This document shows, one piece after another, positions 21,167-61,871 of a stretch of DNA of 64,000 nt. The stretch is from an uncultured Flavobacteriales bacterium (GTDB lineage Bacteria; Bacteroidota; Bacteroidia; Flavobacteriales; BACL11). The stretch covers positions 9,666-73,665 of the forward strand of contig CAJQHO010000013.1 of assembly GCA_905478185.1 (NCBI GenBank), in the 5' to 3' direction. Positions within the stretch are counted from its first letter, which is position 1; every line of letters begins with the position of its first letter. The position numbers were made by a program, and so were the translations under genes. The notes beneath the pieces are model-generated. The model did not search any database. It was not told the origin of the DNA and saw nothing but the letters and a program-made list of their open reading frames with translations.

Positions 21167-21195
21167 AAAACCCTGCTCTTTTTGAGTGGGGTTTT
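21167..21195 (+). terminator. Probable rho-independent terminator after the aldehyde dehydrogenase gene
   Basis: aaaaccctgctc / gagtggggtttt stem (12 bp including 2 G-U pairs), loop ttttt, followed by a T-rich tail. It overlaps the track's GTG start at 21186, which argues for the ATG at 21216 as the next gene's start. Confidence 0.5.
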
Positions 21196-21215: not shown

Positions 21216-22322
21216 ATGAAAAGATTTCAAAGCCTACTAATTTATTTTTTATTACTACTTCCTTTTATTTCTTTTTGTCAAACTAATTCAGATTGCAGTG
21301 ATGTTACTATATCATCAGCAACTGTTAATGGTAGTTATACTGTAAATTCTTATTTAGAAAGTGACGGGATAAGAGATGGTAATGATTATTATGGCTCGAC
21401 AATATATTATCCAGAAAACACAAGTGGTTTATTACCAAGTATTATTATTATCCCAGGTTATGCTAACCCAGAATTAAGTATTCAAGCTTGGGGATCTTTT
21501 TTAGCTTCTCATGGTATTGTGTGTATGACTATTGGCACTAATAGTATTTGGGATGAGGTAATAGATAGAAAAGAAGCCCTACAAGATGCTTTAATTAGTT
21601 TGAAAGCTGAAAATAACCGAACAAACTCTCCTTTATTTAATAAGTTAGATACTAACCTTATTGCCCTTGGTGGTTGGTCAATGGGTGGTGGGGGTGCTCA
21701 ATTAGTTGCAGCTGAAGATCCTAATATAAAAGCAATTCTTGCTTTCTGTCCTTGGATCGACCCATCAGCTGTATCTCCTTCCTTGTTAAACCACGGCGCT
21801 CCAATTCTCATTTTTAGCGGACAAATTGATTTTGTAGCTCCGCCAGGTACTCATGCTGATATACAGTACAACTACACCCCAAGTTCTACAAAAAAACTTA
21901 AATATGAAGTGTTTGGTGGTGGGCACACAATTGCAAACACTCCTTTAGGTGGGTTTGGTGAGGTGGGAAGAATGGGTCTTTCTTGGTTAAAAAAACACCT
22001 TGTTAATGACAGTTGCTACTGCCCTTTATTGTTAGACACGCCAACTACAGCTTCTGATTATGAAACCAACATAGATTGCTCCACCTCTACTGGTGTTGTT
22101 GATTATATAAATGATTTAATTGTTTATCCTAATCCGTCAAGTAGTACAATTACTTTGAAGGGGGTGTTAATCAAAAACAATATTTATCAAATTATAAGTA
22201 TAGATGGTAAGGTGTTAAAGAGTGAAGTCTTAAAAACCTCTAAAATTGATGTTTCTTTTTTAAAAAAGGGAGTCTATTTTTTAGACTATGAAAATCGGAA
22301 AATAAAAATAATTAAAAATTAG
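21216..22322 (+). CDS. Secreted PETase/cutinase-like (dienelactone-hydrolase-fold) polyesterase homologue with a type A T9SS C-terminal sorting domain
   Basis: Signal peptide MKRFQSLLIYFLLLLPFISFCQ. Motif blocks YYP, IIPGY, LASHG, T-I-G-TNS, GWSMGGGG (Ser codon 21678..21680), CPW, ILIFSGQIDFVAP (Asp 21828..21830) and GGGHTIAN (His 21924..21926). C-terminal VYPNPSSSTITL...GVYFLDYENRKIKIIKN is a Por_Secre_tail-type CTD. Confidence 0.85.
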   Translation: MKRFQSLLIYFLLLLPFISFCQTNSDCSDVTISSATVNGSYTVNSYLESDGIRDGNDYYGSTIYYPENTSGLLPSIIIIPGYANPELSIQAWGSFLASHGIVCMTIGTNSIWDEVIDRKEALQDALISLKAENNRTNSPLFNKLDTNLIALGGWSMGGGGAQLVAAEDPNIKAILAFCPWIDPSAVSPSLLNHGAPILIFSGQIDFVAPPGTHADIQYNYTPSSTKKLKYEVFGGGHTIANTPLGGFGEVGRMGLSWLKKHLVNDSCYCPLLLDTPTTASDYETNIDCSTSTGVVDYINDLIVYPNPSSSTITLKGVLIKNNIYQIISIDGKVLKSEVLKTSKIDVSFLKKGVYFLDYENRKIKIIKN

Positions 22323-23353
22323 TTTTCTTTTTTATCCAACTCAATTCTCTCGTCTCTATTTGCAAGTTCCCATGCGGTTAAAAAAACCAAGCGCGTAATA
22401 GTTTCAATTTTTTGAAAATCAATTTTTTCTACAGTGTCTGTTACTTTGTGATAGTCTTCATGAATACCATTAAAATAGAAAATTACGGGAATGTTATTTT
22501 TAGCAAAATTATAATGATCAGATCGGTAATAATATCGGTTAGGGTCGTCCTCTTCATTAAATTTATAGTCTAATTCTAAACCAATATGCTCTTTATTTAC
22601 TTGTTCGTTTATATCGTGCAGCTCTTGGCTTAGCCTGTCTGCCCCTATAAGGTATACATAATTAGGATTGTCTTTAAAATCTCCTATCCTTCCAATCATA
22701 TCAATATTTAGGTTTGCTACTGTTTTTTCTAAAGGATAAATTGGGTGGTCTGTGTAGTATTTACTTCCTAATAATCCTTTTTCTTCTCCTGAAACTGCCA
22801 TTACTAAAACAGATCTTCTTGGTCCCTGCCCTGCTTTTTTAGCAAGCATAAAGGCTTCTGCTGTTTCCATTGCTGCAACCGTTCCGCTTCCATCATCATC
22901 AGCCCCATTAAAAATTAAACTATCATGTTTTCCTAAATGATCATAGTGAGCGGTAATAATAATAAGTTCGTCTTTTAGGTCTGTTCCTTCAATATAACCC
23001 AAAACATTTTCTCCTTTTATTTTCTTTTTATTTCCAAATATCTTTTTTATTAGGCTCTGATCGCAATCATCACATTTACAAAGATGTCTGCCTGACTTTA
23101 CTTTGAATTTCTGATAGTAGGTTTTCTTTTTATAGGGTGGTATTCCTATTTTTTTAAAATGATTCATTATATAGTCAGCTGCCATTTTTTGTCCTGGCTT
23201 TCCTGTTTCTCTACCTTCTAAAGAATCAGATGCAAGTATTGTAAGGTGTTTTTCTAAATCTGAAGCAATAATTGTTTCTGAGTATTTTATATTGTCTTGA
23301 GAAAAAGAAGAAGTTGATATTCCTATAAAAAATATAAATATTATTTTTTTCAT
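22319..23353 (-). CDS. M28 family zinc aminopeptidase, secreted
   Basis: 344 aa with a signal peptide. HYDHLG, GADDDGSGTVA, SGEEKGLLGS and SDHYNFA are M28 metal-ligand blocks. Confidence 0.9.
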   Translation of the reverse strand: MKKIIFIFFIGISTSSFSQDNIKYSETIIASDLEKHLTILASDSLEGRETGKPGQKMAADYIMNHFKKIGIPPYKKKTYYQKFKVKSGRHLCKCDDCDQSLIKKIFGNKKKIKGENVLGYIEGTDLKDELIIITAHYDHLGKHDSLIFNGADDDGSGTVAAMETAEAFMLAKKAGQGPRRSVLVMAVSGEEKGLLGSKYYTDHPIYPLEKTVANLNIDMIGRIGDFKDNPNYVYLIGADRLSQELHDINEQVNKEHIGLELDYKFNEEDDPNRYYYRSDHYNFAKNNIPVIFYFNGIHEDYHKVTDTVEKIDFQKIETITRLVFLTAWELANRDERIELDKKEN

Positions 23354-23786: not shown

Positions 23787-24337
23787 AATTTATTATTTTA
23801 ACAGTGTGTTAGTAATTTTAAAATTTAACCTAGTAGGTTTATTTTACTTATTAATATTTATTTTAAAAATATGTTAATAAATAAGTAACCAAATAAAACA
23901 ACTTCTCTTTTATTTATAATTATAAAAACTAAGCTTTTATCAATTTTTAAAGTCAAGTAAAATTATTGTTTTTTATATTCTACTTTTAAACTCACTTATT
24001 AACTTTATTTAATTGTAAAAATAGTTTTATTTATTAAAATAAAGCTGTTGGTTTAGCTTATTAACAACTATTTATAAGTGTTAATATAATATTTAAGTAG
24101 TTGATTATTAAAATTTAAAAATTAACAATTATTTAAAAAAGTGTTAGTTTGTTTTAATATATAATATAAACTAAAAATTACAACTACATTTATTAACTGA
24201 GTTAACATTTATATATATAAATTATATTTATTTTTAATTTTTAAAATAACTTATATATATTATAATATAAAAATAAACTCAATTTTTAATTTTATAAAAT
24301 TATTGTACTTTTACAACTCACTAATAAATTTAAAAAT
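23787..24337. other. Unusually long (551 bp), extremely AT-rich (about 13% GC by hand count) non-coding divergent region
   Basis: No ORF of 60 aa or more on either strand. All other intergenic gaps in the window are under about 125 bp. It contains three copies of TTATTAAC and a near-consensus -7 box TACTTTTA (24306..24313) upstream of the ATG at 24338. Confidence 0.7.
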
Positions 24338-26362
24338 ATGAAAAAAATATTTACTTTATCTACCGCTTTACTTTTAGTTGGTAGTGTTTTTTCACAAGGA
24401 ACATCAGTTACTTTTTGTGATGACTTTGATTCTTATCAAAATGGAGATCCTATTGCAGCAACTTCTTCTGATTGGGAAACTTGGGGGTCTATTACATCTC
24501 CAACTCCTCCTTATGTAGATGATGCTGATGTAACTAATATATTATCAAATTCTGGAGATTTTTCTTTGTATTTTGAGGCAGTAGGAGCAGGAGGACCACA
24601 AGATGTTGTACTTCCTTTTGGTTCAGGTACTCCATATACTATTGGAGATTTTGAATTTTCAGCAAACTTTTTTGTTAATCAAGGAACAGGCGCATATTTT
24701 AATTTTCAAGCCGAAAATACTCCAGGAACAACATGGAGTTTAGATGTACAAATGGACGCAACAGGTAATATTTCTTTTCAAAATGGAGGAGGTGCAACAA
24801 TTTTTTTAACATCAACATATCCTATGAATACATGGTTTGAAATTAAAACTGTTGTTGATTTAACAAATAATAATTGGGAAATATTTATAGATAATCAATC
24901 TCAAGGAAGTTTTACAAATACAGTTAATAAAATAGCATCATTAGATTTATATCCGATTACAGGACATCAATTTTATGTAGATGATGTTTGTTATTCTTAT
25001 ACTCCAGTGTTTTTAGAAAATTTAAATGCTCAAGTTTCATCAGTTACTCCAATAACAGGTTTAACAGGTCAAACAAGAAATCCTTCTGTAGAAATTAGAA
25101 ATTTAGGTTTAACTAACGTTACTTCTTTTGATGTTGATTTTGAATATAATGGAAATACAATTACTGAAAATATTAGTGGATTAAATATGGTTACTCTTGA
25201 TGTTTATCAGGTTAATTTTAACAACTCTATTTCTTTAATTGCTGGAACAAATCCAGGAATAGCTACTGTATATAATGTTAACGGTTTAGGTCAAGATGAT
25301 GAACCTTTAGATGATCAAATGACAATAAATATAGCATCTATTACACCTGCAGCAGGAAAAGTAGTAATTGGTGAGGAAGCAACAGGTACATGGTGCGGTT
25401 GGTGTCCTAGAGGTGCTGTAGCTTTAAACTGGATGGATCATGATTATGAAGGATATTGGCAAGGTATTGCTGTACACAATGGAGACCCAATGACAGATGC
25501 TGATTATGATAATGGAATGGCTCCATATATAGGGGGATATCCAAGCGGAATGGTTGATAGAGGACAAGAAATAGATCCAGGAGCCTTTAAAAATGATTTT
25601 TTACAAAGAATAATTATTGAACCAAACGGAGTAATTACAAATGGAGCAGCATTAAATGGAGATACTCTTAAAGTTAATTTAAATGTTAATTTTCAAAATT
25701 CAGTAAGTGGAAATTATAAGCTAGCATGTGTTTTAGTAGAAGATTCGGTTACAGGAACAACACCTCAATATTATCAATCTAATTCATATAGCGGAGGATC
25801 TTCTTTAATAGATGTAGATGGAAGTGATTGGGCAAATAAACCATCTAATGTTCCTGCATCACAAATGGTATACAGACATGTAGCTAGAGGAATTGCTCCA
25901 AACTTTAATGGAAGTCCATTAGCAAATACGTCATATAATTCTGGAGATACTGAAACTTTATGTTTCGAATTTACTTTAGACCCATCATGGGATTTATCAA
26001 AAATTCATATTGTTGGGATGTTAATAGACAATGGAAATATGATTGATAACGCCTCTTCAAGCTCTATAGGTGATGCAGAAAATTTAGGATATACTGCTTG
26101 TGCAACAACTTCAACAGGACTAGAATTAAATGGACCAGATAAAATAAATATTTATCCAAATCCAGCAACTGATAATATTTATATTTCAAATTTATTTGAA
26201 AAATCTATTATTAAAATTTATGATATTCAAGGTAAACTAGTTTTAGAAAATAAAATATCAAATAAAGAATATGTAAATATTTCAACCCTAGCTAAAGGAA
26301 TTTATCAAGTTAAGTTTGAAGGAAATAATTTAAATGAAACAAGAAAATTAATTGTAGAATAA
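24338..26362 (+). CDS. T9SS-sorted secreted multidomain protein with a thioredoxin-like/Omp28-related CxxC module
   Basis: 674 aa with a signal peptide. The N-terminal ~220 aa look like a jelly-roll/LamG-type domain, followed by a CARDB-like Ig domain. Then GEEATGTWCGWCPRG (Cys codons 25394..25396 and 25403..25405). C-terminal INIYPNPATDNIYI...GIYQVKFEG...RKLIVE is a type A T9SS CTD. Confidence 0.8.
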   Translation: MKKIFTLSTALLLVGSVFSQGTSVTFCDDFDSYQNGDPIAATSSDWETWGSITSPTPPYVDDADVTNILSNSGDFSLYFEAVGAGGPQDVVLPFGSGTPYTIGDFEFSANFFVNQGTGAYFNFQAENTPGTTWSLDVQMDATGNISFQNGGGATIFLTSTYPMNTWFEIKTVVDLTNNNWEIFIDNQSQGSFTNTVNKIASLDLYPITGHQFYVDDVCYSYTPVFLENLNAQVSSVTPITGLTGQTRNPSVEIRNLGLTNVTSFDVDFEYNGNTITENISGLNMVTLDVYQVNFNNSISLIAGTNPGIATVYNVNGLGQDDEPLDDQMTINIASITPAAGKVVIGEEATGTWCGWCPRGAVALNWMDHDYEGYWQGIAVHNGDPMTDADYDNGMAPYIGGYPSGMVDRGQEIDPGAFKNDFLQRIIIEPNGVITNGAALNGDTLKVNLNVNFQNSVSGNYKLACVLVEDSVTGTTPQYYQSNSYSGGSSLIDVDGSDWANKPSNVPASQMVYRHVARGIAPNFNGSPLANTSYNSGDTETLCFEFTLDPSWDLSKIHIVGMLIDNGNMIDNASSSSIGDAENLGYTACATTSTGLELNGPDKINIYPNPATDNIYISNLFEKSIIKIYDIQGKLVLENKISNKEYVNISTLAKGIYQVKFEGNNLNETRKLIVE

Positions 26363-32648: not shown

Positions 32649-33902
32649 ATGAAAAGCAGAAGAGTAGTTGTTACAGGAATAGGAGCTTTAACTCCTATAG
32701 GTAACAATTTACAAGATTATTGGAAATCATTAGTTGATGGAGTAAGTGGTGCCGCACCAATCACCAATTTTGAGGCTTCAAATTTTAAAACACAATTTGC
32801 TTGCGAGTTAAAAGACTTTAAGGTTACAGATTTTTTACACAAAAAAGCAGCAAGAAAAATGGATCCTTTTTGCCAGTACGCTATGGTTGTAGCGGATGAG
32901 GCAATAAATGATTCGCTTTTAAATATTGAGGGCATAGATTTAGATAGAGCTGGAGTTATTTGGGGTTCTGGAATTGGAGGAATGAAAACATTTCAACAAG
33001 AAGCTTCTGATTTTGCAAAGGGGAGCGGAACACCTAGATATAGTCCATTTTTTATTCCAAAGTTAATTTCTGATATTCCTGCTGGTCATATTTCAATAAA
33101 ATATGGTTTTAGAGGCCCAAACTTTACTACAGTTTCAGCTTGTGCTTCATCAACAAATGCATTAATTGACGCGTTTAATTATATTAAATGGAATAAGGCA
33201 GATATTTTTATTGCTGGTGGTTCTGAGGCTTGTGTTTTTGAAACAGGAATGGGGGGTTTTAACGCAATGATGGCGCTATCTACTCGTAATGATGATCCAC
33301 AATCAGCATCTCGTCCATTTGATAAAGATAGAGATGGTTTTGTAATGGGAGAAGGGGCTGGAGCAATTGTGTTGGAAGAATATGAGCACGCTATAAAAAG
33401 GGGAGCAACAATTTATGCAGAAGTTGTTGGTGGAGGATTAACAGCAGATGCACATCACATTACAGCTCCACACCCGGAAGGATTAGGAGCAAGAAATGTA
33501 ATGAAACTAGCTATTGAAGACGCTGGTGTTGATGTTACAGATATTGATTATATAAATGTTCACGGAACATCTACACCTCTTGGAGATATTGCAGAAACAA
33601 AGGCAATTAAGGATTTGTTTGGGGAGCATGCGTATAATTTAAATATTAGCTCAACTAAATCAATGACAGGACATCTTTTGGGTGCTGCTGGAGTAATTGA
33701 GTCTATTGTTTGTATAATGGCGGTAAAAAATGACACTATTCCTCCTACAATAAATCATAAAACAGATGATCCAAATATTGACAATAAGTTGAATTTAACT
33801 TTTAATACAGCACAAAAAAGAAAAGTTAATTATGCACTTACTAATACATTTGGATTTGGAGGACATAATGCCTCTGTATTATTTAAAAAATACGAATCAT
33901 AA
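32649..33902 (+). CDS. fabF: 3-oxoacyl-ACP synthase II
   Basis: 417 aa with active-site SACASS, HGTSTPLGD, KSMTGHLLGAAG, FGFGGHNA. Confidence 0.97.
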   Translation: MKSRRVVVTGIGALTPIGNNLQDYWKSLVDGVSGAAPITNFEASNFKTQFACELKDFKVTDFLHKKAARKMDPFCQYAMVVADEAINDSLLNIEGIDLDRAGVIWGSGIGGMKTFQQEASDFAKGSGTPRYSPFFIPKLISDIPAGHISIKYGFRGPNFTTVSACASSTNALIDAFNYIKWNKADIFIAGGSEACVFETGMGGFNAMMALSTRNDDPQSASRPFDKDRDGFVMGEGAGAIVLEEYEHAIKRGATIYAEVVGGGLTADAHHITAPHPEGLGARNVMKLAIEDAGVDVTDIDYINVHGTSTPLGDIAETKAIKDLFGEHAYNLNISSTKSMTGHLLGAAGVIESIVCIMAVKNDTIPPTINHKTDDPNIDNKLNLTFNTAQKRKVNYALTNTFGFGGHNASVLFKKYES

Positions 33903-34579
33903 GTTTTTTTAAAACAATAATATCAAAGCTCACTTTTAAAAATAAAGGTGAGCTTTTTTTATTTCAATTATTAGGGTATCATTCAGAAAATGAAATTTAT
34001 AAAAAAGCATTTATTCATAAATCTTCCAATAAGAATAGTCATAACGAGAGATTAGAATACCTAGGTGATGCGATTCTATCCTCTATAGTTTCGGAATCAT
34101 TATTTAATGATTATCCCAGTGAAGCAGAGGGTTTTTTATCTCAAAAAAGAGCAATAATTGTAGGGAGAAAACACTTGAACCTGGTTGGTAAAAAGATAAT
34201 TCCAACTCAAGAGATTAAAAGTAAATTGAATAAAATACCTCTTAGTGTTTATGGAAATACTTTGGAGGCAATTATAGGAGCAATCTATATAGACAAGGGT
34301 TTTGGTAAAACAAACTTATTTGTTCAAAAGCATATTTACACTTCAGAGTTTATAAATGAATTATCAGATACAGATTTTAAGAGTAAACTTTTAAAATATT
34401 CCCAAAAGAAGAATATAAATATGGAGTATAAAGTGGAAAAACAAGAAGGGCCTGATCATAAGAAAGAATTTTTAATTGCAATTTATCTTAATAATAATAA
34501 AATTGCAGAAGCAAAGGGATCATCAAAAAAGGAAGCCGAACAAAAAGCAGCCAAAAAAGCATATAAAATTGTATTTTAG
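33899..34579 (+). CDS. rnc: Ribonuclease III; no ATG/GTG/TTG start is available upstream of the catalytic motif, so the start is uncertain
   Basis: The frame is open from 33887. Own translation: ..ISFFKTIISKLTFKNKGELFLFQLLGYHSENEIYKKAFIHKSSNKNSHNERLEYLGDAILS.., with the signature ERLEYLGDA at 34046..34072. It continues into the track ORF 34175..34579, which carries NTLEAIIGAIY and a C-terminal dsRBD (DFKSKLLKY...GSSKKEAEQKAAKKA). The only near-cognate codons at the 5' end are ATA/ATC (33890, 33896, 33899). Confidence 0.8.
   Translation: MSFFKTIISKLTFKNKGELFLFQLLGYHSENEIYKKAFIHKSSNKNSHNERLEYLGDAILSSIVSESLFNDYPSEAEGFLSQKRAIIVGRKHLNLVGKKIIPTQEIKSKLNKIPLSVYGNTLEAIIGAIYIDKGFGKTNLFVQKHIYTSEFINELSDTDFKSKLLKYSQKKNINMEYKVEKQEGPDHKKEFLIAIYLNNNKIAEAKGSSKKEAEQKAAKKAYKIVF
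33925..33960 (+). terminator. Terminator-like hairpin 23 nt after the fabF stop, lying inside the inferred 5' coding region of rnc
   Basis: aaagctcac (33925..33933) pairs with gtgagcttt (33948..33956): a 9-bp perfect stem and a 14-nt loop, with the right arm running into a T7 tract (33954..33960). Confidence 0.5.
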
Positions 34580-43111: not shown

Positions 43112-44290
43112 ATGAGTTGTGGAAGCGGAGGAGGTTGTGATACATGTGAAGTCTCAGAATCTAGAGGTTGTGGAGTAAGTTCAGTATTTGATTGGCTTTA
43201 CCAGATTGATGGGCCTAAAACTGATAATTCTAACCTAATTGAAGTTCAATTTAAAGGAGATAGAAAAGATTTTTATACAAATACAGAAAATCTTGATATA
43301 AAACATGGAGACATGGTAGCTGTTCAGGGAGATAAATCTGGGCATGATATTGGTAAAATAACTATGATTGGAGAATTAGTGGCACTTCAAATTACTAGAA
43401 AAAACAGAAATACTGAAAAAGACCCTCTTAAAAAATTATATCGTTTAGCATCAGAAACAGATATTGAAAAACAAAAAGGAGCCATTGAAAGAGAGGATGG
43501 CATTCTTGAAAAAGCAAAAAGAATTATTGAAGATTATAAGCTTGAGATGAAGTTGGCTGATGTGGAATTTCAAGGAGATAATTCAAAAGCTACTTTTTAC
43601 TATACTGCTGATAAAAGAGTTGATTTTAGAGAATTAATTAGAGAATATTCTAGGCAATTTGGTGTTCGTGTAGAAATGAGGCAAATTGGAGTAAGGCAAG
43701 AGGCTGCTAAAATTGGAGGAATTGGAAGTTGTGGTAGAGAGCTTTGTTGCTCTACTTGGATGTCAGAGTTTCCTTCAGTTTCAACTAGTGCAGCGAGGTA
43801 TCAACAACTTTCAATAAATCCTCAAAAAATTTCAGGGCAATGCGGTAGGTTAAAGTGTTGTTTGAACTTTGAGCTTGATGGTTATGTTGAGGCGCTTAAA
43901 GACTTTCCAAGTAATAAAGTACAATTGAAAACCAAAAAAGGAACTGGGAAATTCGTAAAGATCGATGTATTTAAAAGATTAATGTTTTATTATAATCCTG
44001 AAAGTCCAGGAGATTTTATTGAACTTCCAGTTGATGGTGTAAAACAGCTTATTGAATTAAATAAAAAAGGAGACATTCCTGTAAGTTTTGATGAGTTTAC
44101 TGTTGAAGAAGAAGTTGTAGAAGTGAGTTTTGAAGATGCAATGGGACAAGATAATATCAATAGATTTGATAAGAAAAATCCTAAGAAAAGCAAAAAAAGA
44201 AAACGACCAGAAAGAAGAGAAAATTATAAAAAAAACAAAGCCAAAGCACAACAAAGAAGGCAAGAAAATAAACCAAAGAAGAATGCGTAA
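43112..44290 (+). CDS. PSP1 domain protein (RicT/YaaT-like) with a long basic C-terminal tail
   Basis: 392 aa. PSP1 core (..FYYTADKRVDFRELIREYSRQFGVRVEMRQIGVRQEA...GSCGRELCCSTW...QCGRLKCCLNFE). The last ~45 aa are K/R-rich. Confidence 0.9.
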   Translation: MSCGSGGGCDTCEVSESRGCGVSSVFDWLYQIDGPKTDNSNLIEVQFKGDRKDFYTNTENLDIKHGDMVAVQGDKSGHDIGKITMIGELVALQITRKNRNTEKDPLKKLYRLASETDIEKQKGAIEREDGILEKAKRIIEDYKLEMKLADVEFQGDNSKATFYYTADKRVDFRELIREYSRQFGVRVEMRQIGVRQEAAKIGGIGSCGRELCCSTWMSEFPSVSTSAARYQQLSINPQKISGQCGRLKCCLNFELDGYVEALKDFPSNKVQLKTKKGTGKFVKIDVFKRLMFYYNPESPGDFIELPVDGVKQLIELNKKGDIPVSFDEFTVEEEVVEVSFEDAMGQDNINRFDKKNPKKSKKRKRPERRENYKKNKAKAQQRRQENKPKKNA

Positions 44291-44741
44291 TTTGAGCGGC
44301 ATTTTTTTGTTTTTTGTTTTTTTTTCTTGTGATAACACAGTTTATGAAAGCCATAATTCTTTTGAAGAAAAATCATGGAATTCTGATAGTGTTATAACTT
44401 TTAATTACAATATTTCAGATACTTTAACCCCGTATGAAATGAGTGTTTTAGTTCGTCATACTGTTGATTACGAATACCAAAACTTATTCCTTTTTCTATC
44501 AGGAGATTTAAACGATACTATTGAGCTTGAATTGGCTGATAAAATTGGAAAATGGAAAGGAAGTGGTCTTAGCGACATAAGAGAGTTTGAATATCTTATT
44601 GCAAAAAATAAAGTGTTCTCAAAAAAAGGAAACCACTCAATAAATATTGAACAAGCAATGCGATTTGGGGCTAAAGAAAAAATACAAAATTTGGAGCATG
44701 TTATTGATATTGGATTAATAATCAGAAAGCAAAATGACTAG
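44283..44741 (+). CDS. gldH: Gliding motility lipoprotein GldH
   Basis: Start moved to MRNLSGIFLFFVFFSCDN (lipobox). About 152 aa with W..DS...F.Y.I.D....Y...V.VRH...Y.YQNLF, LADK.GKW.G.G and IEQAMR. The track's longer ORF (from 44130) overlaps the PSP1 tail. Confidence 0.8.
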   Translation: MRNLSGIFLFFVFFSCDNTVYESHNSFEEKSWNSDSVITFNYNISDTLTPYEMSVLVRHTVDYEYQNLFLFLSGDLNDTIELELADKIGKWKGSGLSDIREFEYLIAKNKVFSKKGNHSINIEQAMRFGAKEKIQNLEHVIDIGLIIRKQND

Positions 44742-48351: not shown

Positions 48352-49279
48352 CTAACCTTTAAACAATTTAAAATTTACTCTATATCGGTAAAACTCAATG
48401 TTAGAGGTCACAGATAATGCTCTTTTAATTTTTAAATTATCTTCTAATCCAATAATAATTCCCTTTACATTTTTATTATCTTCTGCTAATTCTTCTTTTA
48501 CATATCCCATGTATCTTTGAATTTGCCCAACAACATTATCACTAACTCTTCCTTTTTTTAATTCAACAACTAATATTGTTTTTTTGTCTTTACTTATCGC
48601 AAGAATATCAATTGGTCCTGTATCACTTTGGTATTGTTGTCCAACTAATTCGCCATTTTCTTCATAAATATCATAATCATTACCTAATTCAGTAGATCCC
48701 CAATTTTTTACCAAGAAATCTTCAAGATGCTTCTCTAAAGCAAATGCAGAAGCATCTTCAACTGCTTCATCATTACTAAATATCATTGGTGGTTTTTTCC
48801 CTTTTAATAATATTTCAATCTCTTCAGAATATTTTGTTATATCACTTACCGTTCCAATAGAACCTGTTGAATTACGTAAAGCATCACTCATTTCAGATCT
48901 ATCAATTAAAGAAGAATACCAATTTACCTTTCTTCTATGAGGTAAGTCTGTTTTTGATTGATAATAATAATTAGATGTGATCTCTCCAACATAATATCTC
49001 CCCTCTCCAGTAGGGCATAAAACAATATCTCCTGTTTTTATTCCCTTACAAATAGTCCATAGCATTCCACACGCAAGTCCTGCAGCAATTTTTTGATTTC
49101 CCAGGATGGCTTTTTAACCAAATAGGGCGAAACGCAATATTAAATTCCCTCCATTTTTCTTGCAAGTTATTTGTCATATCAATATCAGAAATAAAATCAG
49201 CACCAATAAACCCTCCTTCATAGCATTGTTTTGAGAACACACTATTTGCCCCTAACATTATTCTTTTGTATTGTTTCAT
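48352..49279 (-). pseudogene. NucS-like PD-(D/E)xK nuclease domain protein, split by a +1 frameshift in an A6 tract
   Basis: Two overlapping same-strand ORFs (49046..49279 and 48352..49065). Removing one A from the minus-strand A6 run (plus-strand T6 at 49089..49094) joins ..WLKSHPGKSK to IAAGLACGMLWTICKG.., giving about 308 aa. The C-terminal half carries GPIDILA...ILVVELKKG...VVGQIQRYMGY, the D...ExK...QxxxY pattern of the NucS/DUF91 nuclease core. Confidence 0.7.
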
Positions 49280-56752: not shown

Positions 56753-58540
56753 TTATTTTTCATAAATCTTTTTGGATTTTGCCTTCCCAATCAATTTTTC
56801 TAATTCTTCCTTTTTAGCTTCCATTACTTTTTTAACTGAACCAAAATGAGAGATGAGTAGCTCCACTGTTTTTGGGCCTATTCCATCAATTTTATCCAAT
56901 GAAGTGCCAAGGATATCTTTTCCTCTTTGCTTGCGGTGATGCATAATGCCAAAGCGGTGGGCTTCATCTCGTAATTGCTGTATCAACTTCAAACTTTCTG
57001 ATCGTTTGTCTAAATATAACGGAACACTATCTCCAGGAAAATAGATTTCTTCCAAGCGTTTTGCAATTCCAATAATAGCTACTTTCCCTCTCAACTTTAA
57101 TTTGTCCAAACTTTTTACTGCTGAGCTTAATTGTCCTTTTCCCCCATCAACAACAATCAATTCTGGCAAAGTCTGCTGTTCATCCAAAAGGCGTTTGTAT
57201 CTTCTATACACCACCTCTTCCATACTTGCAAAATCATCAGGGCCAACAACCGTTTTAATATTAAAATGGCGATATTCTTTTTTGCTCGGCCTCGCATTTT
57301 TAAACACCACACAAGCAGCAACAGGGTTTGTGCCTTGTATGTTGGAATTATCAAAACACTCAATGTGTCTTGGGCGATTTATAAGGCGTAGATCTTTTTG
57401 CAACTGTTCTAAAATACGCTTATTGTCTTGCTTTTCAATGTTATTGATTTTGCGTTTTTGCTTGTCTAACTGCATGTATTTTGCATTCCTCAAACTCAGG
57501 TCAATTAGTTTTTTCTTGTCTCCAATTTTAGGGATAGTAATACTTAAGTCCTCCCATACATTTTCTAAGGAATGGGAACAATAGATAGTTTTTGACGTAC
57601 TCTCAAATCTTTGTCTAAGCTCAATAATTGCTAATTGCAATAACTCTTCTTCTGTTTCATTCAATTTTTTATTCAGTTCCAAAGTGTGTGCTTGAATAAT
57701 AGCTCCTGAATTTATCTTTAGATAATTTACAAAAGCAGTGTCTTCATCCGAAAGAATCGTAAACACATCCACATCATTAATCTTAGGATTTACAATGGTT
57801 GATTTTGCCTGATAGTTATTGAGTAAATCAATTTTATCTTTTACTGATTGAGCTTTTTCAAACTCCATTTTTTCAGAAAAATGAAGCATAGCTGTTTTTA
57901 AATGTTGCGTTACCGATTTGATATCTCCCTTGATAATTTGTTGGATATGTTCAATTCCCAATTGATATTCTTCAGTAGTTTGCTTGTCCTCACAAGGGCC
58001 TAAACAGTTTCCTATATGGTACTCCAAGCATACTTTGAATTTCTTTGCATAGATGTTTTTATCCGTTAAGCTTAGGCTACAATTTCTTAAAGGGTATAGT
58101 TGATGAAAGAAATCTAATAGCGTTTTTACCAAACGAACAGAAGTGTATGGTCCAAAATATGCTGAGCCATCTTTAATTACATTTCTTGTTTGGAAAATTC
58201 TTGGGAAGGGTTCGTTTTTTATGCAAATCCAAGGGTAAGTTTTCCCATCTTTTAAGGCAACATTGTATTTGGGTTGATGTTTTTTTATCAGATTATTTTC
58301 TAATAAAAGGGCATCAATTTCAGTAGGAACAACTACATATTTTATGTCGTGAATCTTACTGACAAGTACTTTTGTTTTTCCGTGTTCTTGTTTTTTGTTA
58401 AAGTAGGAACTTACTCTTTTTTTTAGGTTTTTTGCTTTTCCAACATATAATAAAGTTTCATTTTTATCATAGTAACGATAGACCCCTGCTTTTTCAGGGA
58501 TAAGTTTTAATAAGCCTTTTATGTGTTCGCTTGCGGGCAT
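56753..58540 (-). CDS. uvrC: Excinuclease ABC subunit C
   Basis: 595 aa with the GIY-YIG N-terminus (GVYRYYDKNETLLYVGKAKNLKKRV), a UvrBC-interaction region, the endonuclease domain (IECFDNSN..G...VA) and a C-terminal HhH (IDGIGPKT...L). Confidence 0.97.
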   Translation of the reverse strand: MPASEHIKGLLKLIPEKAGVYRYYDKNETLLYVGKAKNLKKRVSSYFNKKQEHGKTKVLVSKIHDIKYVVVPTEIDALLLENNLIKKHQPKYNVALKDGKTYPWICIKNEPFPRIFQTRNVIKDGSAYFGPYTSVRLVKTLLDFFHQLYPLRNCSLSLTDKNIYAKKFKVCLEYHIGNCLGPCEDKQTTEEYQLGIEHIQQIIKGDIKSVTQHLKTAMLHFSEKMEFEKAQSVKDKIDLLNNYQAKSTIVNPKINDVDVFTILSDEDTAFVNYLKINSGAIIQAHTLELNKKLNETEEELLQLAIIELRQRFESTSKTIYCSHSLENVWEDLSITIPKIGDKKKLIDLSLRNAKYMQLDKQKRKINNIEKQDNKRILEQLQKDLRLINRPRHIECFDNSNIQGTNPVAACVVFKNARPSKKEYRHFNIKTVVGPDDFASMEEVVYRRYKRLLDEQQTLPELIVVDGGKGQLSSAVKSLDKLKLRGKVAIIGIAKRLEEIYFPGDSVPLYLDKRSESLKLIQQLRDEAHRFGIMHHRKQRGKDILGTSLDKIDGIGPKTVELLISHFGSVKKVMEAKKEELEKLIGKAKSKKIYEK

Positions 58541-60843
58541 TATCTGCTTAGAACTACAACTTGTTTAAACCTTTCAGTTGTACAATCTTCACTAAAAACC
58601 TCCATCCAAATAATATACATTCCTGTTTCTAATTGTAGCCTATTTTCATCTGTCCCCTCCCAAGATTTACTTCCGGAATTTCCAATCATTTCATTATTTA
58701 TTAGGTTTTTTACTAACCTTCCATTATTATCAAAAACTTTGATTGTAGCCATTAAATTATTTTGGCTAAAGCTCCAATTTATCATTGTTACATCTTTGTT
58801 TCCATCATTGTTAGGGCTAAAGGATTTTGGATCAATATTCATTTCGCCAATACTCTGGCTGATGTAATGTTGTGAGTTTTTATAAGTTGGTGTGCCAAAA
58901 CCTTCTGTGCTTGCAGCCGAATGCCAATTGCTTGTATTTTGCGTTTCATTATTCTTATCTAATCGTTCTAAACTTACCCCATCCTCTCTTTCCAATAATG
59001 AAAAATGCATGTCTTCATGATAATAAAAAGCATCAATTATCTGGTTTAAGGATTGATGCACAATACAAATTGTTCCTTCTTTATTGGATAGGGTTGGCAT
59101 ACTTTCAATCTCAATAAAATTGTAAGGGTTTTCACAATTATATTGTGCTTTTACTTTTGATGAATCGTTAGTTAAAACCAAATAAGTATGGGGGGCAAAA
59201 AGCAATGTTTCTTCTGTAATAATTTTACTATTCTCAGAGCTTAACACTCCTCCAAATTCAAAGAAATTGGCTATTCGTAATTTTGATAAATCAAGAAATG
59301 AATTGGAGTTATTATAAATTTCTACATAATCTACTCCATCATCTTTTGGGTTAAACAGAATTTCATTTATGATGATATCATTTTCCAATGAGGAGTCTGG
59401 CATTCCAAATTGCATAGCATTAATAATGCTATTTCCTGAGCAATCAATCAAGCCATTTGCAGAAATTGTATAAGTAGTGGTTTCTAAAAAGTTAAAATTA
59501 AAAGTCAGGATTGTAGCATCAAAAAAGGGAGCAATTGGACTGCTATTTGTTGCTGTGTTTCCGTTAATTTTAAAAAATGAAGAATCTGACAAAAGCAAAG
59601 AATCTAAATTCTTATTAAAACTAACTTGCATTTTATTACTTCCTATTATATATGCATTTGTAATCCTGAAATCTGCAATATAAACATTTTCTCCCGAAAC
59701 AGAATTTTGCTTTCCAGGAGTTCCTCCAATATTAGAAATTGAAGCTCTCCAATTATGTTGTCTCTCACAATAAAGGTTTGAATTTGCCCTTTCAATACTC
59801 CAACCTCCCTCTGATTTATCCTCATTATTGTACCATTTATCAGAATATGAAATGGCATTTATAGTCTTCCCATTATTGTCTTTTAAAACAATATCTGCCC
59901 CTACATTTGTTAGAGAAATAGAAGAAAAACCGATTTTAGAAATATTGCTTGGAAAAGAATTAAGCGCATCTTCTTTTACTAAGAGCACGAAACTGTCTGG
60001 TTCAATTTTTGAAGTAGGAAAACCCTTTTCAGTTGTTTCAATTGTAATGATCCAATCTGTTAAATCAATTGTTGAGTTTGTATTATTGTAAAGTTCAATG
60101 TATTCAAATTCAGGAAGTCCAATTGATGGCGTTGGGTCAGCAAAAATTTCATTAATAATGATGTCATTTGCACTAATGTTTTGAGGTGTTGGCGGTACTA
60201 CTGAATCACCACTTACTATAAAATTATCAAACCAAAATTTATCAGCTCTTGTTGAGGTATACTTGCAATAAACTCCAAAATAGTCTGAAGGTAAAAGGAT
60301 ATTGTCAAAAGCAGTTCCTTCAGAAAAATAGATATTAGAAGTATCAGTAAAGAGTTCCCAATTCCCTATACTATCTCGAGTAACTTTTATTTTTAAATCT
60401 GGACTTATTGCTGCAATTCCTTCTATTCCGTTAATTAATAATTCATCAGTATCCCCTTCTTGCTTATAAAGCCTTATATTATCTGTTGCTCCAGTTTGAC
60501 CTCCTATTTGAATAAAAAAGCCATTTAAGTCTGCAGTTAAATTTTGATCATCAGCTGTTAAATAAACTTTAGCAAAGTTTGAACTTGAAGAGTTAAATTC
60601 TAGGCGAACATCAAACTCCCAAACAGCATTAATAGAAACATTACTTTCTGTTGCCAAAAAACTTTCCCCACTAATCGTATCATTTAAGTGCAATTTAAAA
60701 GTTGAATCTACTTCAAAAACACCAACACTCCCACTCCAAATGGGATTATTTGTAAACTCTCCATCCGAGAAATTGTCAAGAAATTGTGCGAATACTACTT
60801 GAGTAAAGGTGGTTAAGATAAAAAGTAGTAAGCATTTTCTCAT
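58540..60843 (-). CDS. Large secreted protein with two lamin-tail domains and a type B T9SS (CHU_C-like) C-terminal sorting domain
   Basis: Start moved to MRKCLLLFILTTFTQVVFAQ (signal peptide; ATG at 60843..60841). LTD motifs IIINEIFADPTP...EYIELYNNTNSTIDLTDW and IIINEILFNPKDDGVDYVEIYNNSNSFLDLSKL. C-terminal FSPNNDGNKDV...VFDNNGRLV...W.G......L..GMYIIWMEV....RFKQVVVLSR resembles the gliding-motility-associated C-terminal domain. Confidence 0.75.
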   Translation of the reverse strand: MRKCLLLFILTTFTQVVFAQFLDNFSDGEFTNNPIWSGSVGVFEVDSTFKLHLNDTISGESFLATESNVSINAVWEFDVRLEFNSSSSNFAKVYLTADDQNLTADLNGFFIQIGGQTGATDNIRLYKQEGDTDELLINGIEGIAAISPDLKIKVTRDSIGNWELFTDTSNIYFSEGTAFDNILLPSDYFGVYCKYTSTRADKFWFDNFIVSGDSVVPPTPQNISANDIIINEIFADPTPSIGLPEFEYIELYNNTNSTIDLTDWIITIETTEKGFPTSKIEPDSFVLLVKEDALNSFPSNISKIGFSSISLTNVGADIVLKDNNGKTINAISYSDKWYNNEDKSEGGWSIERANSNLYCERQHNWRASISNIGGTPGKQNSVSGENVYIADFRITNAYIIGSNKMQVSFNKNLDSLLLSDSSFFKINGNTATNSSPIAPFFDATILTFNFNFLETTTYTISANGLIDCSGNSIINAMQFGMPDSSLENDIIINEILFNPKDDGVDYVEIYNNSNSFLDLSKLRIANFFEFGGVLSSENSKIITEETLLFAPHTYLVLTNDSSKVKAQYNCENPYNFIEIESMPTLSNKEGTICIVHQSLNQIIDAFYYHEDMHFSLLEREDGVSLERLDKNNETQNTSNWHSAASTEGFGTPTYKNSQHYISQSIGEMNIDPKSFSPNNDGNKDVTMINWSFSQNNLMATIKVFDNNGRLVKNLINNEMIGNSGSKSWEGTDENRLQLETGMYIIWMEVFSEDCTTERFKQVVVLSR

Positions 60844-60858
60844 AGTCCGTAAATATAG

Positions 60859-60866
60859 TATTTTTG
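60859..60866 (+). promoter_or_regulatory. -7 promoter box (TATTTTTG), 18 nt upstream of asd
   Basis: Exact TAnnTTTG match within the 41-bp divergent spacer. A near-consensus TATATTTA (reverse complement of 60850..60857) faces the opposite gene. Confidence 0.4.
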
Positions 60867-60884
60867 GGGAGTAAAATAAACAAA

Positions 60885-61871
60885 ATGAGATTAGCAATAG
60901 TTGGAGTAACAGGAATGGTTGGCAGGGAAATGTTAGAGGTTCTTTCTGAAAGGGACTTTCCATTAAAAGAGTTGATTCCTGTAGCTTCCGCAAATTCATG
61001 CGGAAAGACTATAAATTATCTTGGGAAAGAGCATGAAATTATTTCATTAAATGACTTACTTGCTAGAAAAGTTGATTTAGCATTATTTTCTGCTGGGGGT
61101 AAAATTTCAAAAGAATGGGCACCAAAATTAGCTGAAAGAGGAATTAAAGTTATCGATAACTCTTCATTTTGGAGAATGTCAGAAAATCATAAATTGATAG
61201 TTCCAGAAATTAACGGGAAAGAACTAACCAATGAGGATATGATTATAGCTAATCCGAATTGCTCTACTATACAGCTGGTAATGGCTCTTGCGCCACTTCA
61301 TCAAAAATTTGGTATTAAAAGAGTAGTTGTCTCTACATATCAATCAATTAGCGGAACAGGTAAAAAAGCAGTTGAGCAATTAGAAAATGAAGAGAAAGGA
61401 GTGATTGTAGACATGGCTTATCCTCATCAAATTTACAAAAATGCTTTGCCACATTGTGATGTTTTTGAAGATAATGGGTACACTAAGGAGGAAATGAAAC
61501 TCACAAATGAAACCAAGAAAATTTTAGATGAATATATTGATGTTGTTGCAACTGCTGTCCGTATTCCAGTAGTTAGAGGGCATTCTGAAAGCGTAAATAT
61601 AACTTTTGAAAATGATTTTGATTTAGATGAAATTAGATTTGCATTAAATCAAATGGCCGGTGTAGTTGTGATGGATAAGCCACAAAAAAACGAATATCCA
61701 ATGCCAATAAATTCTTACAAAAAAGATGAAGTTTTTGTTGGGAGAATTAGAAGAGATTTTACTCAAAAAAACACCTTAAATATGTGGATAGTGGCTGATA
61801 ATTTAAGAAAAGGAGCTGCTACAAATACAGTGCAAATTGCTGAGTATTTAATTAAAAACAAGCTCCTATAA
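60885..61871 (+). CDS. asd: Aspartate-semialdehyde dehydrogenase
   Basis: Start moved to MRLAIVGVTGMVGREM. Contains IANPNCSTIQ (active-site Cys), SGTGKKA, R.PV..GHS and VADNLRKGAA. Confidence 0.95.
   Translation: MRLAIVGVTGMVGREMLEVLSERDFPLKELIPVASANSCGKTINYLGKEHEIISLNDLLARKVDLALFSAGGKISKEWAPKLAERGIKVIDNSSFWRMSENHKLIVPEINGKELTNEDMIIANPNCSTIQLVMALAPLHQKFGIKRVVVSTYQSISGTGKKAVEQLENEEKGVIVDMAYPHQIYKNALPHCDVFEDNGYTKEEMKLTNETKKILDEYIDVVATAVRIPVVRGHSESVNITFENDFDLDEIRFALNQMAGVVVMDKPQKNEYPMPINSYKKDEVFVGRIRRDFTQKNTLNMWIVADNLRKGAATNTVQIAEYLIKNKLL

Follow-up and report, generated by a model that had tools for sequence, protein, structure and literature searches.

The question raised by this locus is whether a gene of an uncultured marine Flavobacteriales bacterium (lineage BACL11) encodes a hydrolase of polyethylene terephthalate (PET) or a secreted esterase with other natural substrates. 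The gene lies in a stretch of 64,000 nucleotides (assembly GCA_905478185.1, contig CAJQHO010000013.1), referred to here as the window. A first-pass annotation, made from the letters of the DNA, had described its product as a homologue of the PETase of Ideonella sakaiensis (IsPETase) fused to a sorting domain of the type IX secretion system (T9SS). The open reading frame (ORF) was recovered as described, running from ATG 21216 to a TAG stop and encoding 368 amino acids (Table 1). The protein comprises three parts: a Sec signal peptide, a PETase-like alpha/beta-hydrolase domain and a type A T9SS C-terminal domain (CTD). Judged from its sequence, it is by every testable criterion a Bacteroidota T9SS-linked PETase-like esterase of the PET27/PET30 kind, which was described in 2022. 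We consider its family, fold and secretion signals to be assigned with near certainty. By analogy with the Bacteroidota PET27/PET30 subgroup, it is very probably a secreted serine carboxylesterase or polyesterase whose natural substrate is not PET and whose turnover of PET, if any, would be weak. That hydrolysis of PET would be detectable at all is a more tentative proposition, to which we assign, again by analogy, slightly less than an even chance.

Family, fold and active site of the esterase

Profile and sequence searches place the likeness to PET hydrolases far above chance. The Pfam profile PF12740 ("PET hydrolase-like") matched residues 36-282 with an E value of 2.6e-46 (158.6 bits, cut-off 28), and 180 distinct PDB chains matched the protein at E <= 1e-3, nearly all of those listed being hydrolases of PET or polyesters. 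The top match was 7pzj_A (E 1.3e-90, residues 8-367, sorting domain included), which is PET30 of Kaistella jeonii (PMC8767016). The next-best matches, with E values of about 1e-47 (none better than 1.6e-47), were Ple629, a Burkholderiales PETase, PET2, PET44, IsPETase variants and PE-H. The AlphaFold2 model, built with 38 homologues, had a mean pLDDT (predicted local distance difference test) of 81; the values were mostly 83-97 in the catalytic domain and dropped at residues 51-60 and 81-90, and confidence was low for the signal peptide, residues 22-40 and the linker 291-308. A Foldseek search of the PDB ranked 7PZJ first (E 1.5e-34, template modelling (TM) score 0.90, 48% identity; all TM scores are target-normalised), and PET2, Ple629, PET44, PE-H, many IsPETase entries and LCC followed at TM scores of 0.83-0.89. 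The first-pass annotation had suggested a family search and a comparison of a predicted structure with IsPETase and LCC as checks on its assignment. Both were carried out: the former returned PF12740 and the polyester hydrolases of the PDB rather than dienelactone hydrolases, and the latter gave TM scores of 0.85-0.89 to IsPETase and LCC, next to 0.90 to 7PZJ.

Two other family assignments were rejected. The dienelactone hydrolase profile PF01738 reached 18.2 bits against a cut-off of 21, and over residues 141-220 only, which means that the "dienelactone hydrolase" labels carried by homologues at JGI are generic. The model for equivalogs of BdeA, which hydrolyses bis(2-hydroxyethyl) terephthalate (BHET), gave 108.4 bits against a cut-off of 520 (NF051441). 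Among the homologues, P0088, P0089, P0093 and P0094 are longer (571-638 amino acids) and 69-71% identical over the catalytic domain; in at least P0088, additional domains (fibronectin type III PF00041 and PF16656) separate the esterase from the CTD. From their sequences, these long homologues are multi-domain versions of the same esterase.

A direct BLASTP comparison with IsPETase, using an IsPETase sequence identical over all 290 residues to PDB 6qgc_A, gave 32% identity over 293 amino acids (E 5e-37; 32-33% across comparisons). All of the sequence blocks paired by the first-pass annotation were found to align: STIYYPENTSG with GTVYYPTNAGG, IIIPGYA with AIVPGYT, FLASHGIVCMTIGTNS with RLASHGFVVITIDTNS, GGWSMGGGG with MGWSMGGGG, CPW with APW, PILIFSGQIDFVAP with PTLIFACENDSIAP, GGGHTIAN with GGSHSCAN, and LSWLKKHL with VAWMKRFM. 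Relative to IsPETase, no insertion is longer than five residues, and therefore the enzyme has no lid.

Conservation was assessed in an alignment of 38 homologues, down to 46% identity. The triad residues Ser155, Asp205 and His237 are invariant, and their codons lie exactly where they had been placed by the first-pass annotation. Trp154 and Met156, which flank the nucleophile, are equally invariant; they correspond to Trp159 and Met161 of IsPETase and to Trp152 and Met154 of PET30, Met156 being an oxyanion-hole residue. Together with the highly conserved Tyr82 and Trp180 (Table 1), this gives the esterase a Tyr-Met-Trp binding motif like that found in IsPETase, LCC and PET2. At the position of IsPETase Ser238, the esterase has Thr238, and its homologues have Thr (25/38) or Ser (4/38). 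The loop that follows the catalytic histidine has the length of that of IsPETase, which exceeds that of type I cutinases by three residues, as the alignment is ungapped from H237 to G254; type I enzymes are gapped at N244, whereas Flavobacteriales variants are not (Data S2, PMC12224614). The loop that follows the clamp tryptophan is longer: the span from Trp180 to Pro196 comprises 16-17 residues in all 38 homologues, compared with 12 in PET30 and 13 in IsPETase.

The C-terminal cysteines noted in the first-pass annotation (CYC...DC) are present as C267, C269 and C288. C269 and C288 align with the C262-C285 disulfide of PET30, the cysteines being seen and the bond predicted. Cys27 and Cys178 are also invariant and, like Cys267, have counterparts in PET30, for which they are not discussed. 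A second disulfide is conceivable between Cys27 and Cys267 and would link the last helix with the N-terminal segment. Cys178 lies two residues ahead of the clamp residue Trp180.

Signals for secretion

The N-terminus of the esterase begins with MKR (Lys2, Arg3), followed by a hydrophobic core of 14 residues and the predicted cleavage site SFC/Q. In the family alignment, position -1 is occupied by C, A, S or G and position +1 by Gln in 37 of the 38 homologues. A small residue at -1 and a Gln at +1 fit the (-3,-1) rule and the Bacteroidetes Q-rule. At the other end of the protein, the type A CTD proposed by the first-pass annotation was confirmed over the last ~66 residues, which match both PF18962 (E 1.8e-9, 38.2 bits, cut-off 27) and the NCBIfam model TIGR04183 (32 bits, cut-off 23; residues 303-367/368, i.e. 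the extreme C-terminus). The modelled CTD has seven beta-strands (301-304, 311-313, 323-328, 333-338, 343-345, 352-358 and 361-367) with pLDDT values of 67-88, and it is preceded by the low-confidence linker mentioned above, which overlaps its first residues. The CTD sequence can be aligned to the PorC domain of PET30, and a weak alignment was also obtained with the sorting domain of a neighbouring Omp28-like protein. The mature catalytic part (residues 22-295) has a computed mass of ~29 kDa and a pI of 4.5, while the CTD is basic, with a pI of 9.5.

It could be argued that the protein is a lipoprotein or a periplasmic enzyme, which never reaches the outside of the cell and whose CTD is just a structural or binding module. 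Cys21 could in principle be a lipobox cysteine, and the core T9SS genes (gldK-N, sprA, porU/V) do not lie within the window, a point that weighs against export by this route. However, 24 of the 38 homologues have Ala, Ser or Gly instead of Cys21 while Gln22 is kept in 37, and the lipoprotein reading of Cys21 was rejected for this reason. The Phe just before Cys21 is also atypical for a lipobox. In addition, the CTD passes both curated T9SS type A models at the extreme C-terminus, and the window encodes GldH and two further proteins with T9SS CTDs, one of type A and one of the CHU_C type B (Table 1), whose sequences are consistent with an active T9SS in the host organism. A lipoprotein or periplasmic enzyme is therefore regarded as highly improbable.

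The route of the secreted esterase can be outlined by homology and from knowledge of type A CTDs. The pre-protein would be exported by Sec and cut by signal peptidase I before Gln22. The T9SS would then recognise the C-terminal beta-sandwich and transport the catalytic domain (~29 kDa) through the outer membrane, after which the sorting domain would be removed and the enzyme released or tethered to the cell surface. Outside the cell, esters would be hydrolysed by Ser155, His237 and Asp205, with the oxyanion hole provided by backbone NH groups (Tyr82 and Met156) and with the substrate clamped by Tyr82 and Trp180 in an open cleft without a lid.

Relation to known PET hydrolases and likely substrates

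The precedent which the first-pass annotation had invoked holds: PET30 (7PZJ) is the best solved relative, and PET27 and PET30 combine a Sec signal and a PorC domain with activity on PET, polycaprolactone (PCL) and BHET (Zhang et al., 2022; PMC8767016). The esterase shares with PET30 a Sec signal with Gln at +1, the PETase-like domain, the PorC/T9SS type A domain, the lack of an active-site disulfide, the CYC...C cysteines of the C262-C285 disulfide, a His at the position of IsPETase Ser214 and an ES/ADGxRxG insertion near the N-terminus. The identity amounts to 44% over the full length and 48% over the solved catalytic domain. The two enzymes differ in the clamp (Phe80-Met-Tyr178 in PET30, Tyr82-Met-Trp180 in the esterase), in the post-clamp loop (12 residues in PET30, 17 in the esterase), in the residue equivalent to Thr238 (Ser in PET30), and in their hosts, Kaistella and an uncultured planktonic marine Flavobacteriales, respectively. 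PET27 of Aequorivita sp., compared by its published description, is also a T9SS-linked Bacteroidota enzyme with a PorC domain, one disulfide and a Trp equivalent to Trp185 of IsPETase, whereas its oxyanion/clamp position is occupied by Phe (F-M-W).

With regard to IsPETase, the shared features are the fold, the triad, the GWSMGGGG motif, the Tyr-Met-Trp clamp, the Trp159 equivalent, the length of the post-His loop and the C-terminal disulfide cysteines, although the first Cys of the esterase lies three residues before C273 of IsPETase. In contrast, the C203-C239 disulfide, the Ser214/Ile218 pair and Ser238 of IsPETase are replaced, and the esterase has extra insertions at 48-51 and 183-191 as well as the added T9SS domain. 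The marine and gammaproteobacterial type II enzymes PE-H, Ple628/629, PET44 and PET2, which are cold or mesophilic polyester hydrolases of marine origin, are the next-best matches after PET30 (E 1e-44 to 1e-47, TM 0.83-0.88, 35-38% identity). However, their identity is far below that of PET30, several of them keep a partial or complete active-site disulfide, and the matches end by residue ~282-290 of the esterase with no T9SS alignment. By these comparisons, the esterase is not of the IsPETase type (type IIb), because the active-site disulfide and the Ser214/Ile218 pair are absent; nor is it an M5-PETase (see below), a BdeA equivalog or a dienelactone hydrolase. It is distinct in having a Tyr-Met-Trp clamp in a T9SS scaffold, a longer post-Trp loop and a very abundant planktonic host lineage, which are variations in a known kind. 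Its clade is the only Bacteroidota T9SS-linked group, among those compared, that has the full IsPETase/LCC-type clamp together with the Trp159 equivalent.

The distribution and evolution of the gene bear on its natural role. The esterase is common in coastal marine metagenomes, where it comes from uncultured Flavobacteriales. At least 20 contigs from marine metagenomes (SOLA and a second marine project) encode the exact protein among the same neighbouring genes. A search at E <= 1e-3 gave 647 homologues, of which dozens are 80-98% identical, from assemblies of ENA, JGI, Tara and Logan. The best species-representative matches (79-90% identity) were metagenome-assembled genomes (MAGs) labelled uncultured Flavobacteriales or Cryomorphaceae, from samples such as FRAM18 and NIOZ-UU. 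The gene order is kept in four of five related MAG loci, and the fifth (L003) begins at the esterase with the same order downstream. The divergence of the esterase tracks that of its neighbours (88-90% identity with the nearest loci and 79-82% with the rest), and its GC content of ~0.35 equals that of the flanks. A recent horizontal acquisition was rejected on these three grounds. The dN/dS ratios against three orthologues are 0.10-0.15 for the catalytic domain, which led us to reject a pseudogene or relaxed selection, and 0.25-0.41 for the CTD. The gene is old, vertically inherited and under purifying selection in an abundant uncultured planktonic lineage of marine Flavobacteriales, for which reason natural esters or aliphatic polyesters are the most likely natural substrates of its product. 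Similarly, the deep divergence of the family with a conserved active site indicates a function much older than PET.

In terms of synthetic substrates, PET27-30 cleave tributyrin, p-nitrophenyl esters (pNP-C6/C10), PCL, BHET and Impranil DLN (PMC8767016). On amorphous PET foil (120 h, 30 °C), PET27 released 872 uM and PET30 16 uM terephthalic acid (TPA), compared with 4056 uM for IsPETase, i.e. 4.7-fold and ~253-fold less, respectively (PMC8767016). By analogy, the esterase would accept PET, PCL and BHET as promiscuous substrates, its turnover of PET probably being weak and lying between the levels of PET30 and PET27. That its clade is active on PET at the level of PET27 or better at seawater temperatures seems unlikely.

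Several observations weigh against the assignment as a polyesterase with some activity on PET. The substrate range is drawn entirely by analogy from relatives at 44-48% identity. In agreement with the first-pass annotation, there is no active-site disulfide, since Gly202 and Ile239 occupy the positions of C203 and C239 of IsPETase (G/A/S and I/V/A in the clade). His213, which is invariant, and Gln217 (Gln or His) stand in place of Ser214 and Ile218, two residues which we take to permit the wobble of Trp185 in IsPETase. The loop after Trp180, longer by 4-5 residues, could narrow the substrate cleft. The exchange of clamp residues in PET30 towards those found here was detrimental, as the F80Y, Y178W and double mutants all lost their BHET and PET activity (PMC8767016); it follows that the Y-M-W motif of the esterase is not predictive. 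Finally, in a survey which sorted ocean PETase-like sequences by motifs M1-M5, only M5 variants, mainly from Pseudomonadales, were active on PET in vitro, and the sequences from Flavobacteriales did not go beyond M2-M4 (Alam et al., 2025; PMC12224614). M5 is defined there as a Met after the nucleophile plus DxDxR(Y)xxFxC. In a regular-expression test of this verbal definition, the second part was not matched by the esterase (VNDSCYCPLLL in the C-terminal helix, compared with DNDTRYSTFAC in IsPETase), while the M1-M4 elements are present (Met after the nucleophile and GGGG in GWSMGGGG at 153, PGY at 80 for [PG]-G-[YF], and the full triad). The Flavobacteriales enzyme PETase_36.M4 of that survey was inactive on PET in vitro (PMC12224614), and with 51% identity over 275 amino acids it is the closest PET-assayed relative of the esterase by identity.

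Some of these observations underlie a different interpretation, namely that the enzyme is a secreted esterase limited to lipid esters or small soluble ones, which would lack any meaningful activity on PET and perhaps on all polymers. It is favoured by the M5 result, by the inactivity on PET of all assayed M1-M4 ocean enzymes (PMC12224614), PETase_36.M4 included, by the very low TPA yield of PET30 and by the long clade loop next to Trp180, which might restrict the cleft. PETase_36.M4 also resembles the esterase in its ESxGIRNG insertion, its DSCYCPLL...NISCS C-terminal region, its marine Flavobacteriales origin and its failure to match M5. Nevertheless, it differs at four key positions, with F-S-K, PGF and YPF in place of W-S-M, PGY and CPW, and thus lacks the Met after the nucleophile, the Trp159 and the Trp185 that are all present in the esterase. 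Moreover, PET27-30 share the NDxCYC region and do not match M5 either, yet they are active on PCL, BHET and Impranil; for PET27 and PET30, this extends to PET foil. The efficiency score of the same survey gives very low ranks to LCC and to the cutinases of Thermobifida (PMC12224614). As proven PET hydrolases are ranked so low, neither the score nor M5 can be a general predictor. The combination of Tyr87, Met161, Trp159 and Trp185 (IsPETase numbering) occurs in none of the 14 Flavobacteriales variants from Tara and Malaspina that are catalogued there (Data S2, PMC12224614). The clade of the esterase seems absent from that catalogue, probably because PF01738, which the esterase fails, was the screen. 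On balance, an enzyme restricted to small esters is possible but doubtful, and we favour a secreted polyesterase with natural ester substrates.

At the other extreme, the esterase could be an efficient PET degrader on par with IsPETase and adapted to ocean plastic. The full Tyr-Met-Trp clamp with Trp154, a combination which is likewise missing from PET27 and PET30, the beta8-alpha6 loop of IsPETase length and the wide occurrence of the gene in coastal metagenomes would fit such a role. Against it stand the missing active-site disulfide, the His and Gln at the Ser214/Ile218 positions and the weak PET activity of the best-characterised relatives. In addition, a family that has diverged to <50% identity, with synteny kept in close MAGs and strong purifying selection, points to an origin and a role that long predate PET. 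No MHETase-like or terephthalate-catabolic genes were found in Pfam scans of 55 of the 59 window ORFs of >=120 amino acids, all neighbours included, and the adjacent aldehyde dehydrogenase (ALDH) belongs to lysine catabolism. Efficient degradation of PET is accordingly considered very unlikely.

As a secreted polyesterase of the PET27/PET30 kind, the protein reveals no new mechanism or system and is a sound but incremental candidate. If active, it would provide a polyesterase scaffold that is adapted to cold, is secreted naturally and stems from a marine lineage of very high abundance, and it is a reasonable candidate for screening panels with PCL, poly(butylene adipate-co-terephthalate) (PBAT), BHET and PET. 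As it has every canonical substrate-binding residue yet fails M5, it offers a clean test of how strict the M5 rule is. Activity of the clade on PET at the level of PET27 or better at seawater temperatures would contradict the published view that only M5-motif variants, mainly from Pseudomonadales, are functional marine PETases, and "M4" Flavobacteriales enzymes would then add to the slow weathering of polyester microplastics in surface oceans. The conservation, synteny and purifying selection of the gene argue for a natural ester or polyester substrate of planktonic Flavobacteriales.

Gene boundaries, neighbourhood and other features of the window

The start codon of the esterase was assigned to ATG 21216. 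A GTG at 21186, which is used for some database homologues and would give a form of 378 amino acids, was rejected because it lies within a terminator-like hairpin at the end of the upstream ALDH gene; related locus L002, most homologues and the exact-match contigs also start at the ATG. Gene callers give an identical product of 368 amino acids on at least 20 metagenome contigs. The intergenic RNA upstream of the esterase has a fold of -21.1 kcal/mol (z = -4.1). Since the ALDH gene has its own terminator, the esterase gene would have its own promoter, and it is probably a separate transcription unit. At its other end, it shares 4 bp at the stop codons (22319..22322) with a convergent M28 peptidase gene (22319..23353, minus strand). 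This overlap is kept across the MAG loci, and no terminator-like hairpin was found between the two genes.

Table 1. Coordinates and supporting details of the esterase gene, its parts and T9SS-related genes of the window
Feature	Coordinates	Strand	Details
Complete PETase-like esterase CDS	21216..22322	+	368 aa + stop; ATG 21216; TAG 22320..22322
Sec (signal peptidase I) signal peptide	21216..21278	+	Residues 1-21; predicted cleavage SFC/Q, mature N-terminus Gln22
PETase-like alpha/beta-hydrolase catalytic domain	21321..22061	+	Residues 36-282; PF12740, AlphaFold2, Foldseek
Tyr82, oxyanion hole and aromatic clamp	21459..21461	+	IsPETase Tyr87, PET30 Phe80; Tyr in 36/38
Trp154-Ser155-Met156 in GWSMGGGG	21675..21683	+	All three invariant in 38 homologues
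Nucleophile Ser155 (TCA)	21678..21680	+	IsPETase Ser160; invariant
Trp180, aromatic clamp	21753..21755	+	IsPETase Trp185, PET30 Tyr178; Trp in 37/38
Clade-specific longer loop after clamp Trp	21756..21803	+	Residues 181-196; confidently modelled, short helix 188-191 (AlphaFold2)
Catalytic Asp205 (GAT)	21828..21830	+	IsPETase Asp206; invariant
Catalytic His237 (CAC)	21924..21926	+	IsPETase His237; invariant
C-terminal cysteine cluster C267, C269, C288	22014..22079	+	Invariant in 38 homologues
Invariant cysteines besides the PET30-type disulfide pair: Cys27, Cys178, Cys267	21294..21296, 21747..21749, 22014..22016	+	38 homologues; same cysteines in PET30
Type A T9SS C-terminal sorting domain	22122..22319	+	Residues 303-368; PF18962, TIGR04183, model, alignment to PET30 PorC
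Terminator-like hairpin and T-run, end of upstream ALDH gene	21167..21195	+	12-pair stem, 5 G-C pairs, then ATTTTTTGTA
Second T9SS cargo, Omp28-like	24338..26362	+	674 aa; PF11551 + type A CTD (TIGR04183 54.6 bits); two genes downstream of esterase
GldH gliding-motility/T9SS-associated lipoprotein	44130..44741	+	TIGR03511 92.5 bits, cut-off 78.7
Lamin-tail protein with CHU_C type B sorting domain	58540..60999	-	819 aa; two PF00932 domains; PF13585, E 3.7e-7

The conserved gene order comprises Dxr, RseP, a Na+/H+ exchanger, ALDH and the esterase, then the M28 peptidase and RpiB on the opposite strand and, beyond RpiB, the Omp28-like T9SS protein and RNase R, the latter again on the opposite strand. 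The ALDH is an L-piperidine-6-carboxylate dehydrogenase equivalog (828 bits, cut-off 730). In view of this and of its own terminator, a functional tie to the esterase, for example through oxidation of ethylene glycol or glycolaldehyde, was rejected. The Pfam scans of the window showed ordinary housekeeping genes, and no second copy of the esterase was found in the window, where only its CTD matches another CTD, weakly.

Some further observations concern individual genes. The Omp28-like T9SS protein diverges faster than its surroundings, with 68% identity to its MAG orthologues compared with 81-98% for flanking genes. Between rpiB and this gene lies a 550-bp AT-rich intergenic region (23787..24337; GC ~0.22-0.25 vs ~0.33 elsewhere), in which no ORF of >=60 amino acids and no RNA family match was found. 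The 819-residue Lamin-tail protein had no NCBIfam match. With its listed TTG start, the GldH gene would share ~160 nt with the PSP1-domain gene ahead of it (43112..44290), and the true start is probably later. The RNase III frame (33902..34579, plus strand) is open from 33902; its first ATG/GTG/TTG is at 34175 and would remove most of the catalytic domain, whereas the catalytic signature ERLEYLGD is present upstream of it. This gene either relies on a non-canonical start codon (ATA/ATT) or has lost its start. A terminator-like hairpin of fabF (about 33925..33962) lies inside this open frame. Finally, a gene at 48352..49065 (minus strand), located between a CoA-transferase pair and an ABC-ATPase gene, encodes a protein of 237 amino acids with a PDDEXK nuclease domain (NucS_C / YhcG_C-like, E 1e-9).

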